NCBI GenBank assembly: GCA_025455635.1
Contig: JALOMF010000003.1
Span: 1 to 31,249 of the forward strand
Source of the DNA: Saprospiraceae bacterium
GTDB taxonomy: Bacteria > Bacteroidota > Bacteroidia > Chitinophagales > Saprospiraceae
Reading direction: 5' to 3'
Length of the DNA: 31,249 nt
Shown: positions 6,633 through 14,704 of the stretch, piece by piece
Numbering within the stretch: the stretch's first letter is position 1
Layout: every line of letters begins with the position of its first letter
Translations under genes and position numbers: made by a program
Notes under the pieces: model-generated
Database searches by the model: none
What the model was told of the DNA's origin: nothing
The model's input: only the letters and a program-made list of their open reading frames with translations

Positions 6633-6637
6633 TGCAT

Positions 6638-6696
6638 GTACCGGAACCCCGGTTCCCTGTGTCAATCTATCCACCGGAACGGGGGTTTCGGTGTAC
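6638..6696. terminator. Imperfect GC-rich inverted repeat between convergent genes
   Basis: gtaccggaaccccggttccctgtg ... caccggaacgggggtttcggtgtac fills the gap between the two stop codons. Confidence 0.5.
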
Positions 6697-6698
6697 GG

Positions 6699-8303
6699 TT
6701 ACAGTACCGTCAAATCAATAAACTCCAACTGCTCCGGGAAGTCCGTCGTGAAGTGCAGGCCCCGGCTCTCCCGCCGCATGGCTGCCGAGCGGGTGATGAG
6801 GTAGGCGATGGTGATGAGGTTGCGAAGCTCACAGAGCTGCGGCGAAATGGTCGTCTTGTGGTAAAGTTCCTCCGTTTCTTTGTACAACAAATAAAGGCGG
6901 TCGCTGGCACGCTGGAGGCGCTCGTTGGAGCGCACGATGCCCACGTAGTAGCTCATCACATCCTTCAATTCCTTCATGCTTTGGGTAATGAGAATCAACT
7001 CCTTGGGGTCGGTAGTACCCTGTGCATTCCAGTCTGGGATGGCAGTAGTTGGCAGTTTTGTACCGTCTATTTTCTCCCGAACATCCAAGTAGATACGGTG
7101 GGCGAAAACCATTGCTTCCAGCAGGGAATTGGAGGCGAGACGATTGGCGCCGTGGAGGCCCGTGCAGGTACATTCGCCAGCGGCGTAAAGGCGGTTGATG
7201 CTCGTGCGGCCTATCTCGTCGGTCATGATGCCGCCGCACATGTAGTGGCAGGCGGGCGTCACGGGTATCATGGCCGTCATCGGGTCAATGCCGATGCTCA
7301 GGCATTTTTCATAAATAGTGGGAAAATGCGCCACAAAAGCCTCCTTGTCGAGGTGGCGGCAGTCGAGGTACATGTGCTCGGCGCCCTGGATTTTCATCTC
7401 CCGGTCAATGGCCCTCGCCACGATGTCACGGGGAGCAAGGCTGCCCCGCTCGTCGTATTTTTTCATGAACTCCTCGCCCTGCGGGGTCTTCAGCACGCCG
7501 CCAAAACCACGCACCGCCTCCGATACGAGGAAGGAGGGGTTGTCGCCAGCCGGGTTGTAGAGCGCCGTCGGATGGAACTGCACGAACTCCATGTTCTGGA
7601 TGCGCCCCTTTGCCCGATAGACCATCGCCATGCCGTCGCCGGTGGCAATGACGGGGTTGGTGGTATTGCGATAGACCTGCCCTGCCCCGCCCGTGGCCAG
7701 CACGGTCATGCGGGCGAGCAGCGTCTCGATTTCGCCCGTCTGTTTGTTCAGGGCATAGGCGCCGTAGCACTCGATGCCGGGCGTCACCCTCGTGACGGTA
7801 TGCCCCAAGTGGTGCTGCGTGATGATGTCAATGGCAAAATAGTGCTCCAGCACCGTGATGTTCGGCGTGAGGTCGGCCTGTGCGCTGAGGGTGCGCTGCA
7901 TCTCCCAGCCCGTGAGGTCTTTGTAGTGCAGGATGCGGTTTTCGGAGTGGCCGCCCTCCTTGGCGAGGTCGTAGGCTTCGCCCTTGTTTTTGTCGAAACG
8001 GGCGCCCCAGTCAATGATTTCCTGCACCCGGTCGGGGCCTTCCTTGACCACGATTTCCACGATGTTTTTGTCGCAAAGCCCGTCACCAGCGATGAGCGTG
8101 TCCTCGATATGCTTCTGGTAGCTGTCCGTTTTGAAATCCCAAACGGCGGCCACACCGCCCTGTGCGTAGCGGGTGTTGCTCTCGGTCTCGTTGGTCTTGG
8201 TGAGCACGGTGATGTTCAGGTCGGGGCGCTCTTGCGCAATTTTGAGGGCAAAGGTCAGCCCGGCGATGCCAGAACCAAGCACGAGTATGTCGCTTTGAAT
8301 CAT
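6699..8303 (-). CDS. nadB: L-aspartate oxidase
   Basis: GSGIAGL, SNTRYAQGGVAA, EGGHSENRILH, EFVQFHPT, LVSEAVRG, HYMCGG, LHGANRLASNSLLE, RESRGLHF. Start taken at MIQSD (8303). Confidence 0.96.
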   Translation of the reverse strand: MIQSDILVLGSGIAGLTFALKIAQERPDLNITVLTKTNETESNTRYAQGGVAAVWDFKTDSYQKHIEDTLIAGDGLCDKNIVEIVVKEGPDRVQEIIDWGARFDKNKGEAYDLAKEGGHSENRILHYKDLTGWEMQRTLSAQADLTPNITVLEHYFAIDIITQHHLGHTVTRVTPGIECYGAYALNKQTGEIETLLARMTVLATGGAGQVYRNTTNPVIATGDGMAMVYRAKGRIQNMEFVQFHPTALYNPAGDNPSFLVSEAVRGFGGVLKTPQGEEFMKKYDERGSLAPRDIVARAIDREMKIQGAEHMYLDCRHLDKEAFVAHFPTIYEKCLSIGIDPMTAMIPVTPACHYMCGGIMTDEIGRTSINRLYAAGECTCTGLHGANRLASNSLLEAMVFAHRIYLDVREKIDGTKLPTTAIPDWNAQGTTDPKELILITQSMKELKDVMSYYVGIVRSNERLQRASDRLYLLYKETEELYHKTTISPQLCELRNLITIAYLITRSAAMRRESRGLHFTTDFPEQLEFIDLTVL

Positions 8304-8312
8304 GATAGAAAA

Positions 8313-8344
8313 CGGTGGACGGCTTACGGCGGACGGCATTCGGC
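8313..8344. repeat. Heptamer array (cggtgga/cggctta family) in the nadB 5' leader
   Basis: cggtgga cggctta cggcgga cggcatt cggc; same units as at 16053-16128. Confidence 0.75.
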
Positions 8345-8379
8345 TCGTCGCTGCACAAGGCCGCTGTTTTTTAAGGAGG

Positions 8380-8387
8380 CAAAGTTA
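8380..8387 (-). promoter_or_regulatory. -7 element (TAACTTTG) for nadB
   Basis: caaagtta on the + strand is TAACTTTG on the - strand. Confidence 0.7.
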
Positions 8388-8482
8388 CGAAGGCTTGCAC
8401 CTAAGTTTACGATGGCTTTTGTATTTCAAAAAGCGTCACTACATTTAGCCGGATATTTTTCACCAACCAAAAATTCGAAAGC

Positions 8483-9268
8483 ATGCAAGACAACAAAGCA
8501 AAGATTGACCAAATCATCAGCGAAGCCAACGACTTCCGGTTTGGCGACTACCTCAGCAGGGGCTTCGAGATTTTCAAAAAAGACATTGGCGGGTTCGTTG
8601 TGTTCACGCTCGTTTTCTTTGTGCTATCCGTCGTCATTGGGCTGATACCCATCGTGGGCAGCATTGCCAACTCGCTCGTCATCACGCCTGCCCTGACCGT
8701 GGGCTTCTACTTGGTGGCCCGCAAACTGGACTTGGGCGAACAGAACGAGTTCGGCAATTATTTCAAGGGCTTCGATTTCGTGGGCCAGCTTGCCCTCGCA
8801 GCCTTGGTCACCAGTGTTATCTCGCTCTTGGCGCTCATCCCGTTTTACTTGGCTTTCTGGAACCCAGAGTACCTTGAGTGGTACCAAGAAGTGGTTCAAA
8901 ACCCAGGCTCGCCACCGCCCAGCTTCCCTGAATTACCGCCGGTTTGGTCTTTTTTACTGTTGCTTCCCGTATTTTATATTGGCATTGTCTATGGCTGGAC
9001 CTACCTGTTCATTGCCTTCCACAAATTGGATTTTTGGCCAGCGATGGAGGCCAGCCGTAGGCTGCTGACCAAGCATTTTTTCATCTATTTCATCTTCATG
9101 TTGGTGTTGGGCATCATTATGTTTGCCAGCATACTGGTATTTTGCATCGGCATCTTGGCGGGTTTCCCCATCATCATGTGCATGAACTACGCTGCCTTCG
9201 CCGACCTGACCAAGCTCAACGCCACCCCCGATGCCGGAGAGGAGATTGAGCAGCACTTGATTGTTTGA
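8483..9268 (+). CDS. Integral membrane protein (DUF975/BPSS1780-like)
   Basis: About six hydrophobic segments; GF..F K..., F.DYF.GF and FWPAMEASRRL patterns. Confidence 0.8.
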   Translation: MQDNKAKIDQIISEANDFRFGDYLSRGFEIFKKDIGGFVVFTLVFFVLSVVIGLIPIVGSIANSLVITPALTVGFYLVARKLDLGEQNEFGNYFKGFDFVGQLALAALVTSVISLLALIPFYLAFWNPEYLEWYQEVVQNPGSPPPSFPELPPVWSFLLLLPVFYIGIVYGWTYLFIAFHKLDFWPAMEASRRLLTKHFFIYFIFMLVLGIIMFASILVFCIGILAGFPIIMCMNYAAFADLTKLNATPDAGEEIEQHLIV

Positions 9269-9276
9269 TTGAATTA

Positions 9277-9350
9277 ATTGTTGAATTGTTTGATTGCTGG
9301 ATTGTTATTGTGATACGTGTAACAATCTAGCAATCAAACAATTCAACAAT
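9277..9350. repeat. Tandem 8-mer palindrome, 31-bp arms with 1 mismatch
   Basis: attgttga attgtttg attgctgg attgtta (9277-9307) versus taacaatc tagcaatc aaacaatt caacaat (9320-9350). The anmK stop lies inside the right arm. Confidence 0.85.
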
Positions 9351-10425
9351 CAAATACCCCGCCGCCCAAAGCATCCCGGCTCGCTCCGGTCACGCTGGCG
9401 ATGCAGTTCGGGGCACCCTCCACCCGCATTGTACCGAGTAGCGCCATCAACAGCGCTTCCTTGAACTTCACAACATTTTCGTTTGGAACGACCACTTCTA
9501 CATTTGGCAAATGCTGTTGGATGCACTGCATCAGGTAGCCGTTGAAGGCACCGCCGCCCGTAGCCAGCAATTGGTATTTTTCCTTCGTAAAACACTCATT
9601 TTCAACCACTTGCCGCACTGACCCCGCCAGTTGCACGGCGATGTGCTGACAAACCGTGTGCAGCCTGTCGGCAATGGGCGACGAGGCAGCTAGGCATGCT
9701 TCGGTCAAGTGCTGGCGCACCCACTGGTTCGATAGCGATTTGGGGTATTGCTCCGCAAAAAACGGTTGGTTGTTGATTATCTCAAAAAGCGAGGAGTCGA
9801 GTTGGCCGGAGGCCGCCAGCAGGCCGTCCTTGTCGTAGGGCAGCCCCCCTGCAAGGTTGGCAAGGGCGTTGAGGGCTTGGTTTGCTCCGCAAACATCGAA
9901 GGCGACGATGCGGGCTGCGTGGCAGGTGATATTGGCGATGCCGCCAAGGTTGAGGTAAAAATCGTAGCCGGGGAAGAGCAGCTTGTCGGCCATCGGGGCG
10001 AGCGGTGCGCCCTGGCCTCCGAGTGCCACATCAGCCGTGCGGAAGTCGTTGATGACGGTGCAGCCCGTGGCATTGGCCAGTGCGGCGCCATCGCCAATCT
10101 GCACCGTGAAGCCCCGTGCGGGTTCATGGAAAATGGTGTGGCCGTGCGAGGCGATGAGGTCAACCTGCACATTTGACAAGCCGTTTTTTTCAAAAAAATG
10201 ATTTACCAGCCCACCGATGTAATGCCCAAACTCCGCATGGGCACTGCAAAAATCAAAGGCTGAAGCACTGGGCAATTGGCGAAGCCGCTCCTGCCAGGCC
10301 TCCGTGAAGGGCAGGGTGTCCGCCCGCAGCAGTTCCCAGCTTTTTACCAAAAAAACACCTCCCTCCCAAGCCGTGACGAGGCGGCAGTAGGCGATGTCGA
10401 GGCCATCAAGCGAGCTGCCCGACAT
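9343..10425 (-). CDS. anmK: Anhydro-N-acetylmuramic acid kinase (true start uncertain)
   Basis: (IGL)MSGSSLDGLD, SHGHTIFH, QIGDG, DFRTADVALGGQGAPL, LNLGGIANIT, AFDVCGAN, GGGAFN, KEAL. Confidence 0.92.
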   Translation of the reverse strand: MSGSSLDGLDIAYCRLVTAWEGGVFLVKSWELLRADTLPFTEAWQERLRQLPSASAFDFCSAHAEFGHYIGGLVNHFFEKNGLSNVQVDLIASHGHTIFHEPARGFTVQIGDGAALANATGCTVINDFRTADVALGGQGAPLAPMADKLLFPGYDFYLNLGGIANITCHAARIVAFDVCGANQALNALANLAGGLPYDKDGLLAASGQLDSSLFEIINNQPFFAEQYPKSLSNQWVRQHLTEACLAASSPIADRLHTVCQHIAVQLAGSVRQVVENECFTKEKYQLLATGGGAFNGYLMQCIQQHLPNVEVVVPNENVVKFKEALLMALLGTMRVEGAPNCIASVTGASRDALGGGVFDC

Positions 10426-10460
10426 GAGGCCGATGGCGTTGGTAGTGTTGATTGGATGGC

Positions 10461-10559
10461 TTTGTTTGATGGGTTTGACTTGTTCGATGGGGTTGGCTTG
10501 TTGAAGGGTTCACGCAACACTGCCCCTCAAACAAATCGAACCCATCGAACAAATCAACC
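10461..10559. repeat. Tandem 9-mer palindrome between the cytochrome c gene and anmK
   Basis: tttgtttga tgggtttga cttgttcga ... tcaaacaaa tcgaaccca tcgaacaaa tcaacc. Confidence 0.8.
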
Positions 10560-10894
10560 TACTTTTTCAGCGTCAGGGTGTATTCAGCCACTGCCTTTAT
10601 CTTTTCGGGCGTGAGCAGGTCCTTGAACGGTGTCATGGCTTTGCGGCCATTGGTGATGACGTTGATGCGCTCCTCCACAGGCAAGGTGGACGTTTGTAGG
10701 TTGAAGGCACCGCTGGCGCCCATGTCGCCATAGAGGCCGTGGCAGGTAACGCAGTAGGTTTTGTAGATTTTCTCGCCATCAACTTTTGGAGCAGCTTCGG
10801 CAGTAGGTTCGCTACCGCCCTTGTCGCCTCCTTCGGATTGGCTGCAAGCATAAACGAAGGTGGCAAGCAATGCGAAAACAAATATTTTTTTCAT
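10559..10894 (-). CDS. Monoheme c-type cytochrome lipoprotein
   Basis: Lipobox VYAC, heme motif CVTCH, distal Met in GRKAMTPF. Start taken at MKKIF (10894). Confidence 0.9.
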   Translation of the reverse strand: MKKIFVFALLATFVYACSQSEGGDKGGSEPTAEAAPKVDGEKIYKTYCVTCHGLYGDMGASGAFNLQTSTLPVEERINVITNGRKAMTPFKDLLTPEKIKAVAEYTLTLKK

Positions 10895-11008
10895 GTCTGA
10901 AAGGTATTTTTTGAGAGGCGAAGTTAATGGCCGCCCAGAAAAAATCGCCAAAAAGTTCTGGTATGCGCTAAAGAATCAAACAAGGGTATCAAAATTCTCG
11001 AAACGCAT

Positions 11009-11016
11009 TACATTTG
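11009..11016 (+). promoter_or_regulatory. -7 element (TACATTTG) upstream of the SWIM-SNF2 gene
   Basis: Exact TAnnTTTG match 35 nt before ATG 11052. Confidence 0.7.
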
Positions 11017-11051
11017 CGCCGACCCGTCGATAGCCATCTTTTCAAACATCT

Positions 11052-14000
11052 ATGGCAAAGAAATATGGAGTGACGTGGTGGGGGCAGCAATGGCTACATT
11101 CTCTTTCCCTGATTGATTATAGCAACCGCCTACCACGAGGTAAATCAATTGCCAGCAATGGCAAGGTTCGTTCGATAGACGTCAAGGGCAACCAAATCAA
11201 CGCGAAGGTACAAGGTGAGAAGCCGGTGCCCTTCCGGGTAGGCATTAGTGTGCCCCTGTTCACCGCCGACGAAAAATTACGGCTGTTGGAGGCCATCTCC
11301 CAGCATCCCGCCTTATTGGATAAAATAAGCAGGCGGGAACTCCCGCAGGAATTACTGAAGTTGGCCGAAACCCAACGCATTAAGATTTTCCCCGAATCGT
11401 GGAAGGATTTTTCGCTCCACTGCTCCTGCCCCGACATGGCAGTTCCGTGCGAGCACATGGCAGCCGTCATTTACGAAGTGACAGAGGAGATGGACAAAAA
11501 CCAGTTCATGATTTTTGAGCTGCACGAAATGCACCTGCTCAAGGAACTGAACGACTACTACAACCAGCTCTCGGAGAAAAAATCGGAGCAGGTGCCCGAA
11601 ATCTCCAACCTGCTGCAACCCCTGCCACCAACCGCCCAAGACCCCGACGAAGCACCCACGGCCCTCCCCCAGCCCAAGGCAGCCGACATTGACTTCACGA
11701 CCCTCCCCGAAGTGGGCAGGCACCTCATGCGGCTGTTCAGGCCACAGCCCGTTTTTCAAGAAAAAGACCTGATGGAAGCCGTCATTGAGTGCTACGAGCG
11801 GGCCTCCGAGGCCGCCGAAAAGTACTTGCAGGGCAACTTCCCGCCAGCCGACATCACCGGCAGCATCGTGTCCGGCGACAAGCTGCAAATGGTGCTCGAC
11901 CCGCAGCTTTTTCCGAAAAAACTGCATGTGCTGGACGAAAACAACAAGCCGGCCAAGGTAAACGCCGACGAACTGCTGCACCTCCTGCTCGAATACGACA
12001 TGGAAGCTCCCGGCGAAACCCACCCTACCGTGGCCGCCGTGCTCGACGCCATGTCGTTTTCGCTGAACCTTGCTGAAAAAGGGGCCATACTCCCGCAGTT
12101 GCTCTCCAATGGAAAGGATACCTACCTCATCCGGTGGGTACCGCTGATGGCCGTGGAGGAGGTCAGGCTGGTGTTCGACAAGCTGGCCGATGCCATGCCG
12201 CCCAACCTGTTGGTAGTTGAAAAAAACGGCGCACCTTTCATCTTTTCGCCCGCCGAAACGCTCAATACACTTTGCTCGCTCTTCATCGGCGACTGTGTGC
12301 GGGAGGGTGCTGAAGCTGACAACCACCCGGTGGTGAAGTTGCTGCACGGCCAAGCTGGCAGCGCCGTGCAAACCATTGAAAACGAAGCAGATGCGCAACT
12401 GCTGCAGCGGTGGTTGCAGCCGTTTTACCCGCCCCGCAAAGAGTTTGCCCCGGTGCTCCGCATCGAAGACCTAGATGGGCAGTACGGCGTAGAACTCCTC
12501 GTCGAGCAGCGCACTGCCCCGCTCGTGCCGCCGGTGACCTTCAGCCAGTTTTTGCAGCAAAAAAGGTTCGAAAACGTGAAGGCCGACGTGGTGAAGGACA
12601 TCGCCCTGCTGGCCGATATTTACCCACCGACCGAAAAAATCATTGCCACCGACGGCAAATACAGCCCCAATTACAACCCCACCCGGCTACTCGAACTGAT
12701 GGCCAACACACTGCCCGTCGTGGCCGTTTTTGGCATAAAAACCACGCTGCCGCCGGGCATGGAGAACGCCGTGACGCCCAAAGTGGCCCTACTGGCCAAG
12801 CGCCTGACCCGAAAGAAATCCAACGGCCCAGTGCCCGTCGAGGAAGTTTTCGGCTTCGACTGGCAGGTGGCCCTCGGCAACGAGATGATGACCGTGAAGG
12901 ACTTCGAGAAGATGGTGCGCAACGACGACGGCGTGGTCAAATGGCACGACAAATACGTACTGCTCGACGAGGACGAGTTGATGAAGCTCTTCGACAAACT
13001 GGAGATGCCCCCCAAACCCACCGGCCTCACGCTGCTGCAAGCCCTACTAGCCGAAGAATACGACGGCATGCCCATCAGCTTTACCGCCGATGCCACTGCT
13101 GCCCTTCGGGAATACACCACCCCCACCAAGACCAACCTGCCACGTGGCCTAGCCGTGGACATGTACCTGCACCAGCTCATCGCCTACGATTGGCTGCTGA
13201 AAAACGCCCGGTTCGGCTTCGGGAGCCTGCTCGCCGACGACCTCGGCGTAGGCAAGTCGCTGCCAGTCATTGCAGCGCTGCTGAAGTTCAAGGAGGATGG
13301 CCTGCTGAAAACCGAGAAGGCACTGCTCGTGGCCCCCATCCCCCTTCATGCCAACTGGTTGAAGGAGGTAGAAAAGTTTGCGCCAAAGCTGAGGAGGGCC
13401 GTTTTTCAAAACGGCGAGCTGGTCGGCCCTGCCGACCCCGACGTGGTATTGGCATCTTATGTCGGCTTGCGCAATGAGCCAGAACTCCTCCGCAACATGC
13501 CTTGGTACTGCATCGTGCTCGACGAGGCACAGCGCATCAAGTCGCCGCACACCGCCCTTTCAAAAAACGCAAGGTCGTTGGAAGCGCCCATCAAAATCGC
13601 CGTTTGCAGCATGGAAGTGGAAAGCAGCTTGGCCTCGCTCTGGAGCCTGATGGACTTTGCCAACCCCGGCTACTTGGGCACTTGGCGGCAGTTCACCGAC
13701 GAGTTCGTACACCCAATCCGGCGGGAGCACGAGCGCCGCAAGGCTGTTTACCTAAAAAAAATAACTGCCCCGCTGCTGCTGCGCCGCCGGAAATCAGACA
13801 AGCTGGAGCTGGCCGACTTGCCGAAACGCATCGAGCACCGCCAGTATGCCGCCCTCATTCCTGAACAGGCCGCTCTCTACGACAGCCTTGCGAAGCAAGG
13901 CCTGAAGGCAGTTTTCGATGAAAAAGAACCGCAAAGGCGGCAAAACATTGCACTGAAACTGGTGGTAGCGCTGAAGCAAGTATGCAACCACCCCTTTCAA

Positions 14001-14540
14001 TACTTGCGCAAAGGAGCCACCTTGCCGCAGCTTTCCGGCAAGGTGGAACTGCTGTTGACGCTGCTAGAAAACATCTATGAGAGCAAGGAAAAAGTACTGA
14101 TACTGACCCAGTACCAAGAGACCGGAGAGCTGCTCCTGCGCTACATCAAAGAAGCATTTGGCAAAGAGCCGATGCTGCTGCTGGGCAGCACCAACCGCCT
14201 CGTCAGGGAGGAAATGGTCGAGGTTTTTCAGGAAAAACCCGAATTTGACACCCTGCTGCTTTCGCTGAAAATGGGCGGCTCCGACCTCAATTTGACCGCA
14301 GCTAGCCACCTCATCCACTTCGATACTTGGTGGAACCCCGTGCTCGAAGCCCATGCCAGCCGGGCCATTTTGTCACCTGAAATCATGACGTGGCGCCTCA
14401 TCACCAAGGGCAGCTTGGAGGAGCGCATTGATGAAATGTTCGGCTGGAAAAAAGAACTTGCCAGCCTTACGGCAGCCGATGGAGAAGGCTGGCTGGGCAA
14501 CCTGACGGACGAAGAACTAAACGAGCTAATATCAGTTTGA
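11052..14540 (+). CDS. SWIM zinc-finger + SNF2-family helicase-like protein with degenerate catalytic motifs
   Basis: SWIM CSCPD...CEH; LADDLGVGKS, VLDEAQ, LKQVCNHP, SGK, LNLTAAS..IHFD.WWNP. Motifs III, V and VI are altered. Confidence 0.88.
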   Translation: MAKKYGVTWWGQQWLHSLSLIDYSNRLPRGKSIASNGKVRSIDVKGNQINAKVQGEKPVPFRVGISVPLFTADEKLRLLEAISQHPALLDKISRRELPQELLKLAETQRIKIFPESWKDFSLHCSCPDMAVPCEHMAAVIYEVTEEMDKNQFMIFELHEMHLLKELNDYYNQLSEKKSEQVPEISNLLQPLPPTAQDPDEAPTALPQPKAADIDFTTLPEVGRHLMRLFRPQPVFQEKDLMEAVIECYERASEAAEKYLQGNFPPADITGSIVSGDKLQMVLDPQLFPKKLHVLDENNKPAKVNADELLHLLLEYDMEAPGETHPTVAAVLDAMSFSLNLAEKGAILPQLLSNGKDTYLIRWVPLMAVEEVRLVFDKLADAMPPNLLVVEKNGAPFIFSPAETLNTLCSLFIGDCVREGAEADNHPVVKLLHGQAGSAVQTIENEADAQLLQRWLQPFYPPRKEFAPVLRIEDLDGQYGVELLVEQRTAPLVPPVTFSQFLQQKRFENVKADVVKDIALLADIYPPTEKIIATDGKYSPNYNPTRLLELMANTLPVVAVFGIKTTLPPGMENAVTPKVALLAKRLTRKKSNGPVPVEEVFGFDWQVALGNEMMTVKDFEKMVRNDDGVVKWHDKYVLLDEDELMKLFDKLEMPPKPTGLTLLQALLAEEYDGMPISFTADATAALREYTTPTKTNLPRGLAVDMYLHQLIAYDWLLKNARFGFGSLLADDLGVGKSLPVIAALLKFKEDGLLKTEKALLVAPIPLHANWLKEVEKFAPKLRRAVFQNGELVGPADPDVVLASYVGLRNEPELLRNMPWYCIVLDEAQRIKSPHTALSKNARSLEAPIKIAVCSMEVESSLASLWSLMDFANPGYLGTWRQFTDEFVHPIRREHERRKAVYLKKITAPLLLRRRKSDKLELADLPKRIEHRQYAALIPEQAALYDSLAKQGLKAVFDEKEPQRRQNIALKLVVALKQVCNHPFQYLRKGATLPQLSGKVELLLTLLENIYESKEKVLILTQYQETGELLLRYIKEAFGKEPMLLLGSTNRLVREEMVEVFQEKPEFDTLLLSLKMGGSDLNLTAASHLIHFDTWWNPVLEAHASRAILSPEIMTWRLITKGSLEERIDEMFGWKKELASLTAADGEGWLGNLTDEELNELISV

Positions 14541-14584
14541 AAAAAACGGCTGCAAGGAGTCACACCCTTGCAGCCGTTTTTTTT
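14541..14584. terminator. Bidirectional intrinsic terminator
   Basis: aaaaaacggctgcaagg-agtcacac-ccttgcagccgtttttt; GC stem with A and T tracts between convergent genes. Confidence 0.9.
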
Positions 14585-14603
14585 AAACACCTATATACCG
14601 TAA

Positions 14604-14704
14604 GCCGCCAAGTTTTGGGCATGGTTGATAATCCCTGTTTGCCAATGGGCAAGAACATTATCAACCGTTATAAACCAAAGCGCTCATGCCCAAAACTTGG
14701 CGGC
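14604..14704. repeat. 101-bp nested inverted-repeat element (MITE-like or structured RNA)
   Basis: Perfect 20-bp terminal IR gccgccaagttttgggcatg / catgcccaaaacttggcggc; inner IR ggttgataat / attatcaacc; innermost ttgcc / ggcaa. Confidence 0.75.

Follow-up and report, generated by a model that had tools for sequence, protein, structure and literature searches.

A vertically inherited YwqA-type SNF2 protein of Saprospiraceae with replaced coupling motifs, a candidate nucleotide-gated binder or switch

A SWIM-SNF2 protein with replaced motifs

The window analyzed here is a stretch of 31,249 nucleotides (contig JALOMF010000003.1, positions 1 to 31,249 of the forward strand) from an uncultured Saprospiraceae bacterium whose source assembly (GCA_025455635.1) is 80% complete. 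The sole long frame at 11052-14540(+) encodes a protein of 1162 residues in which a SWIM zinc finger, DUF3670 and an SNF2 helicase core follow one another. The gene is monocistronic; upstream, on the opposite strand, lie a cytochrome c gene and AnmK, and downstream come a convergent EPSP-synthase-family gene and then a fucosidase gene. It is a vertically inherited, selectively maintained YwqA-type derivative, and its product may have kept ATP binding while losing translocation. The coding sequence and its domains are:

11052..14540, + strand: SWIM-DUF3670-SNF2 coding sequence, protein P0001, 1162 codons plus TGA
11415..11474, + strand: SWIM zinc finger, residues 122-141 (Pfam PF04434, 19.7 bits against a cut-off of 19.6)
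12675..13049, + strand: DUF3670, residues 542-666, the hallmark of this SNF2 subfamily (Pfam PF12419, E 3.3e-15)
13170..13997, + strand: SNF2-rel_dom, RecA-like lobe 1 with the SNF2 insertions, residues 707-982 (Pfam PF00176)
14040..14357, + strand: Helicase_C, RecA-like lobe 2, residues 997-1102 (Pfam PF00271)

All four Pfam domains exceed their gathering scores and stand in the correct order for the SNF2 family; PF26921 is recorded on an identical database protein (P0002). With a SWIM finger, a middle region and DUF3670 just before the SNF2 core, and with a full-length alignment to more than 250 family members, the protein belongs to the YwqA-type SWIM/DUF3670 SNF2 group; YwqA itself we take, from a DUF3670 genome search and general knowledge, to be the DUF3670 protein of Bacillus subtilis. 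The NCBIfam equivalog model of the SCO1167/SCO6262 helicases (NF058637) gave 427.7 bits against a cut-off of 1200, and the NCBIfam and PADLOC models for SCO1167, ZorD, DpdE, DrmD and RapA matched the generic core only, far below their cut-offs. The closest solved relative, the SSO1653 (SsoRad54) core (1Z63 / 1Z6A), has the same two-lobe SNF2 core (phmmer E 4.6e-85 over residues 699-1161; Foldseek E 6e-35, 32% identity), but it lacks the SWIM/DUF3670 N-terminal half and carries all canonical motifs (TGTPIEN, AGGFGINL, QATDRVYRIGQ), whereas the window protein is without III, V and VI. YwqA-type SNF2 ATPases share the domain order of the window protein over the whole length, and the nearest canonical ones form a Saprospiraceae group of their own, clade C (P0007, P0123, L088-L091; about 48% identity, 48.6% for P0007). 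What the window protein has in common with clade C includes the SWIM ligands, DUF3670, Walker A and B and the WWNP block; in comparison with canonical YwqA-type proteins, motifs III, V and VI and the flank of the Q-motif have been replaced, and motif VI has suffered a four-residue deletion.

The loss registers in domain scores and in the predicted structure. PF00176 is matched at 149.1 bits (cut-off 24.9) against 235 for the canonical paralogue P0007, and PF00271 at 40.3 bits (cut-off 23.5) against 77 for P0007 and 87 for a canonical paralogue on contig C150, so that the two helicase domains score about half as high as those of canonical relatives. An AlphaFold2 (AF2) model has a mean predicted local distance difference test score (pLDDT) of 86.2 and an SNF2-core fold whose top structural match is 1Z63; its lobe-2 minima fall exactly at motifs V and VI, with a pLDDT of 59 for residues 1071-1080 and for residues 1101-1110. 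Set against a consensus drawn from 119 homologues (94-100% conserved), the motifs read:

13164..13187, + strand: Q-motif region YLHQLIAY, residues 705-712 (canonical RPYQxxGY); Gln708 retained, Arg705, Tyr707 and Gly711 replaced
13236..13265, + strand: motif I (Walker A) DDLGVGKSLP at residue 729 (consensus DDMGLGKTLQ); GxGK[ST] core intact, final Gln changed to Pro
13335..13358, + strand: motif Ia PIPLHANW at residue 762 (consensus PTSLLTNW); conserved P, N and W retained
13521..13544, + strand: motif II (Walker B) DEAQRIKS at residue 824 (consensus DEAQNIKN); DEAQ intact
13605..13625, + strand: former motif III CSMEVES at residue 852 (consensus SGTPVEN); G, T, P and N lost
14271..14294, + strand: former motif V MGGSDLNL at residue 1074 (consensus AGGTGLNL); A to M and G to D fixed in clade A, the window protein and its close orthologues
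14346..14381, + strand: former motif VI EAHASRAILSPE at residue 1099 (canonical EAQATDRAxRIGQ); Q to H, four-residue deletion, GQ lost

A sequence-only reading of the same DNA had proposed an intact candidate pseudo-ATPase. The motif strings that it quoted all lie where it implied, and the 1162-codon frame is as unbroken as it claimed, the translation containing no internal stop. The deletion in motif VI adds to what it listed: aligned as HAS----RAILSP against QATDRAxRIGQ, it takes one of two arginines, and although MAFFT and HMMER place the gap differently (over RIGQ in the latter), both alignments lose one Arg and the GQ. The reading had further claimed that losses concentrate on catalytic positions, and for the coupling motifs this is borne out by a column analysis against 69 canonical members. 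Forty of the 141 columns that are at least 93% conserved among these are altered in clade A, and the altered columns amount to 25 of 44 in the Q-flank and motifs III, IV, V, Vb and VI, as against 2 of 20 in motifs I, Ia and II (Fisher p = 4e-4) and 13 of 77 among other conserved columns (Fisher p = 1e-5). About half of the altered invariant positions now carry one new residue throughout clade A (Y705, H707, A711, P738, S853, E855, M1074, D1078, H1101 and L1107 are such residues) and the remainder now vary, a pattern that reads as a mix of new and relaxed constraint. Walker A, Walker B, the Q-motif Gln, motif Ia, the motif IV Gln and the HFDxWWNP block are intact and invariant, as is R1104, the arginine remaining in motif VI. 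Of the motif set of a catalytically competent SNF2 protein, I and II are thus found, whereas replacements stand at III, V and VI, the last of these also shortened. Of the key catalytic residues whose loss would mark a pseudoenzyme, the protein lacks one arginine finger as well as motifs III and V but retains the P-loop Lys, the Walker B Asp/Glu and a single Arg in motif VI.

Two sister clades at one locus

The window protein and eight further orthologues, 74-79% identical to it (DNA was examined for six), constitute clade A. Whether orthologues share the degenerate motifs had been suggested as a check, and all of them do, with the common replacements CSxEVEx, MGGxDLxx and AHA[ST]RxxLSP; the SWIM ligands CxC-x6-CxH (C124, C126, C133, H135) are likewise invariant across the clade. 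Beyond what the sequence-only reading contained, we find a sister clade with other replacements, a locus that the two clades share and a burst of divergence between them. This clade B (L076-L079 and L084, each at about 8001-11510; P0015, P0122) comes from metagenome-assembled genomes (MAGs) of Saprospiraceae, is 46-47% identical to the window protein and differs in its motifs (DEAQWVSD, IGRxIEH, PTHPGQSL, QxVERAxRISQ), retaining both motif VI arginines. P0008 shows a third degenerate pattern, with a deletion in motif III, and the partial P0124 a fourth. Motif III is the sole motif degenerate in all four related lineages (A, B, P0008 and P0124), and because of this its loss was, by parsimony, most likely the first lesion.

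Multi-motif loss is rare. Among 258 full-length family proteins it was seen only in the window lineage, its sister lineages and the distant P0248, and among 1.84 billion representatives clustered at 50% identity only the few clusters named here exceed 40% identity to the query. P0248 (1177 residues, 30% identical to the window protein) stands on a separate branch of the family and has lost Walker B together with motifs III, V and VI altogether, apparently through an independent loss that removed more of the ATPase site. A sample of 120 Saprospiraceae genera contained no orthologue belonging to clade A or B; its top full-length matches were canonical proteins 33-39% identical to the window protein. 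A canonical SWIM-SNF2 gene in another Saprospiraceae genus (L010, G066:C13:95939-99421) contains one in-frame TAA.

Degenerate motifs could also mark a relic that is decaying into a pseudogene, and the sequence-only reading had set retention against this possibility. The ratio of nonsynonymous to synonymous substitution rates (dN/dS), calculated by the Nei-Gojobori method, is 0.05-0.14 within clade A (seven coding sequences, over 1162 codons) and 0.04-0.135 within clade B (five), as against 0.15-0.24 in canonical clade C; the least saturated clade A pair, L074-L082, has a dS of 0.54 and an omega of 0.05. Every domain is constrained, both RecA lobes included, and none of the 12 intact orthologous coding sequences of clades A and B has a stop codon. 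The lost catalytic motifs would suit decay, as would one frameshifted clade B copy, L085, the only broken one. Its shift, at L085:9767-9782, falls in an A6 run within GAAGAAAAAAGC; given a long-read MAG and 98% identity to the intact L077, a sequencing error in the homopolymer is the likeliest cause. The pseudogene reading is rejected on dN/dS, and a relic has next to no probability left: the gene is retained as had been claimed, the signs of simple decay are missing, and purifying selection across species, itself a mark of a conserved pseudoenzyme, is evident.

In both clades the gene sits in one and the same slot, immediately after AnmK(-) and cytochrome c(-). AnmK is 73.5% identical between A and B and 74.8% within A, and cytochrome c is 78% and 82% identical, respectively, whereas identity of the SNF2 gene falls from about 80% within a clade to about 45% between them. 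In an RpoB tree of nine of these genomes, the A genomes are set apart from the B genomes with 98% support, and the internal topology equals that of the SNF2 tree. Because the flanking locus is the same and the RpoB tree is congruent with the gene tree, A and B are, on this comparison, vertically inherited orthologues in two sister species groups. The full-length protein tree has the form (C, (P0008, (A, B))) with 99-100% SH-aLRT support and with stems of 0.39 and 0.42 for A and B; the placement of P0008 could be affected by long-branch attraction. The N-terminal half alone yields the same A+B and A+B+C groupings with 100% support, so the A+B grouping is not an artefact of common motif loss. 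In-situ replacement by a foreign paralogue, considered as a cause of the gap between A and B, was rejected: on either side of that gap the gene tree agrees with the RpoB tree, and A+B is monophyletic in the N-terminal half. In a more distant genome with the same GTDB genus label (G104, contig C9), PriA fills the slot beside AnmK-cytochrome c (L103:8038-10692); AnmK there is only 54% identical, and the case is therefore uninformative on loss within the clade.

The divergence was episodic. The ratio of the A-B distance to the within-clade distance is 4.6 for the SNF2 gene and 1.8 for RpoB; across the same species split canonical clade C accumulated 0.26 substitutions per site and the degenerate gene 1.30, as compared with 0.18 and 0.28, respectively, within the B genomes. 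Clades A and B thus diverged about five times faster than clade C and then slowed. The burst hit the whole protein and not just the ATPase core; the SWIM-containing N-terminal part is the most conserved between A and B, at 65% identity. Between the same genomes the dS of clade C is 0.44-0.66, below the value of about 1.0 for the degenerate copy, which may reflect horizontal exchange or stronger codon bias.

The sequence-only reading had offered regulation of an active paralogue as one possible role and had suggested a search of the genome for such a gene. A canonical paralogue does exist, albeit in another subfamily: contig C150 carries a complete canonical SNF2 gene (G000:C150, L008:2068-6201) whose 1377-residue product belongs to the SNF2_assoc (PF08455) subfamily and has all canonical motifs, and a second SNF2_assoc gene (G000:C645, L009:2256-3866) is ended by the contig edge just after Walker A. 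The more specific idea, that the degenerate protein is a partner, decoy or dominant-negative regulator of the canonical clade C paralogue, draws on clade C being the sister group and on its co-occurrence with A or B in five of ten related genomes (G121, G123, G127, G129 and G130, of which the last four hold L088-L091). A clade C copy was not found in the other five (G122, G124, G125, G126 and G128), genomes whose completeness is unestablished, and neither it nor any second DUF3670 gene was found in the window's own, 80% complete genome. The degenerate gene is equally constrained in genomes without clade C, and the two genes are unlinked. This weakens the claim, and we regard such a regulator as quite improbable.

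The burst could alternatively record an arms race, with the protein serving as an anti-phage component like the SNF2 proteins ZorD (Zorya type I), DpdE or DrmD. The SNF2 core is similar to those of ZorD and DpdE (230-278 bits with the PADLOC models; PDB 8QY7, E 1.5e-44), and a Septu-like pair lies 8 kb upstream within the window. These matches span the generic SNF2 core only, and the ZorD equivalog scores 200.9 against a cut-off of 1500; ZorD and DpdE are active motors, and the window gene has neither a nuclease domain nor Zor or Dpd neighbours. It stands as a single cistron among housekeeping genes (AnmK, cytochrome c, EPSP-synthase family, fucosidase); its place on the chromosome is fixed, its inheritance vertical and its evolution within clades slow. 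Membership in a defence island was rejected on gene context and hidden Markov model scores, and an anti-phage role is very improbable.

Proposed ATP binding with impaired translocation

We posit that the window protein is an ATP-binding, translocation-impaired SNF2 derivative acting as a nucleotide-gated binder or switch, a reading to which we assign a probability of roughly 55%. On the comparisons above, a duplicate of the canonical clade C gene settled beside AnmK and cytochrome c in an ancestor of one Saprospiraceae group and lost motif III. After the species split, clades A and B rebuilt the lobe-2 face of the ATP cleft differently, in a short burst, and strong purifying selection has since acted on both descendants. 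Clade A kept the nucleotide-binding elements of lobe 1 (the Q-motif Gln, GxGK[TS] and DEAQ) and replaced the coupling elements that close the cleft, sense the gamma-phosphate and track DNA (III, V and VI). Such a protein would still bind ATP, its hydrolysis would be slow or nil and its translocation gone, with the SWIM/N-terminal module and the DNA-binding surfaces still in use. The SWIM-containing N terminus would supply target recognition, and the protein would serve, on DNA or RNA polymerase, as a static binder or switch under nucleotide control and not as a motor.

Motifs III and V contribute to cleft closure, gamma-phosphate sensing and the coupling of hydrolysis to movement in superfamily 2 (SF2) and SNF2 proteins. 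The arginine of motif VI helps to close the cleft and to hydrolyse ATP (PMC1616948). No member of the A/B group has lost the Q-motif Gln, the P-loop Lys and Thr/Ser or the Walker B Asp-Glu, which argues that nucleotide binding is still under selection there. Because Walker A, Walker B and the Q-motif Gln are strictly kept in every degenerate lineage, the term pseudo-ATPase may overstate the case, and “uncoupled or translocation-impaired ATP binder” appears to fit better. Two proteins of unrelated subfamilies, neither of them SNF2, offer a conceptual likeness only, as precedents for an SF2 fold retained to bind or switch and not to step: yeast Utp25p is a pseudohelicase (PMC9539457), and in the EcoP15I Res subunit ATP triggers diffusion (PMC4490356).

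The principal competitor is a still-working DNA-dependent ATPase or translocase, in which the coupling motifs have drifted to a functional non-canonical form and the remaining arginine serves as the finger. It would explain why none of Walker A and B, the Q-motif Gln, motif Ia, the motif IV Gln and the HFDxWWNP block has been lost or varies, why both RecA lobes are under purifying selection, why R1104 does not vary in clade A and why clade B has both arginines. It has to accommodate, however, the replacement in three motifs of positions that are 99-100% invariant in the 69 canonical members, a deletion of one turn in motif VI, helicase-domain scores about half those of canonical paralogues, and an AF2 confidence that drops exactly at motifs V and VI; moreover, the replacements in A and B differ, which is more in keeping with released constraint than with one new optimum. 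We consider a still-active ATPase or translocase somewhat unlikely. Several points nevertheless weigh against the impaired binder or switch that we prefer. Inactivity is a prediction from sequence; the invariant R1104 could still act as an arginine finger in clade A, and in clade B neither arginine of motif VI is lost; an active enzyme would be expected to retain Walker A and B just as strictly. The motif windows of the enrichment test follow the usual motif definitions and were chosen after the data had been viewed, and most sequence pairs other than L074-L082 have a dS of 0.85-1.8, near saturation, which makes their dN/dS ratios approximate. Finally, the polymerase or DNA target is extrapolated from YwqA, which is itself called poorly characterised (PMC7385302).

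That target is the weakest step of the proposal. It is suggested by analogy with statements on B. subtilis YwqA, which is listed among translocases that interact with RNA polymerase (PMC7385302). RapA/HepA, a bacterial SNF2 protein whose presumed site of action is RNA polymerase, could have this target class in common with the window protein; it differs in its N-terminal domains and is catalytically canonical, and the window protein scores 17.1 bits with the NCBIfam RapA model against a cut-off of 576.

Pseudoenzymes are well documented among kinases, phosphatases and some helicases. In the papers searched on bacterial SWIM-SNF2 function and on SNF2 pseudo-ATPases, we found no description of a conserved, catalytically remodelled bacterial SNF2 protein. 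The architecture and the family were already known; what appears to be new is that a lineage with selective erosion of the coupling motifs has been conserved, that one orthologous locus holds two alternative remodelled forms, and that a burst of change gave way to stasis. We tentatively suggest, short of proposing it as probable, that these proteins could represent the first bacterial SNF2 “pseudo-translocase” family, in which a common loss of motif III was followed, at a single chromosomal locus and in a short burst, by two independent cleft remodellings in sister lineages, each then frozen, so that a DNA motor became a binder or switch on DNA or RNA polymerase that is gated by ATP and does not translocate. 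Even the canonical YwqA-type family has hardly been characterised, and the lineages form a natural series for separating its functions: clade C is canonical; clade B lacks III and V and retains both arginines; clade A lacks III, V and one arginine; and P0008 has a deletion in III. Comparison along this series could separate (i) family activities that need translocation from (ii) those that need nucleotide-dependent binding only. Burst and stasis at a fixed locus, with a control paralogue in the same genomes, make a clean case of motor repurposing.

Expression signals and neighbouring DNA

The sequence-only reading had also credited the gene with host codons and with a promoter and terminator of its own. 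Codon use agrees with this: the G+C content of third codon positions (GC3) is 0.73, compared with 0.69-0.82 in neighbouring genes, and codon frequencies correlate with those of the other window genes at r = 0.76. A foreign Septu-like gene in the window provides the contrast (GC3 0.37, r = 0.06). Two signals flank the coding sequence:

11009..11016, + strand: candidate Bacteroidota-type -7 promoter element TAcaTTTG, read from the sequence, 35 nt before the ATG
14540..14587, + strand: intrinsic terminator with an A-run, an 11-bp G+C-rich stem (core 14547-14577) and a U8 tail, from sequence and RNA folding

The terminator stood up to examination: its hairpin begins at the stop codon of the SNF2 gene, precedes the U8 tail and folds at -32.8 kcal/mol (z = -9.3), a stability equalled by none of 200 shuffles; being symmetrical, it may operate in both directions. 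The promoter is a candidate -7 box predicted from sequence, which matches TAnnTTTG, the Bacteroidota -7 consensus; a sigma-70 promoter scan of the region, with a model unsuited to Bacteroidota, did no better than on shuffled sequence.

Between the terminator and the convergent EPSP-synthase-family gene sits a perfect 20-nt inverted repeat, gccgccaagttttgggcatg / catgcccaaaacttggcggc, at window positions 14604-14623 and 14685-14704, with a 61-nt spacer. Elsewhere in the window two long open reading frames overlap on opposite strands, at 6636-8645(+) and 6699-8339(-). The plus-strand frame encodes 669 residues without a Pfam match and has an atypical GC3 of 0.55, yet L073 contains a match that is 62% identical to it.

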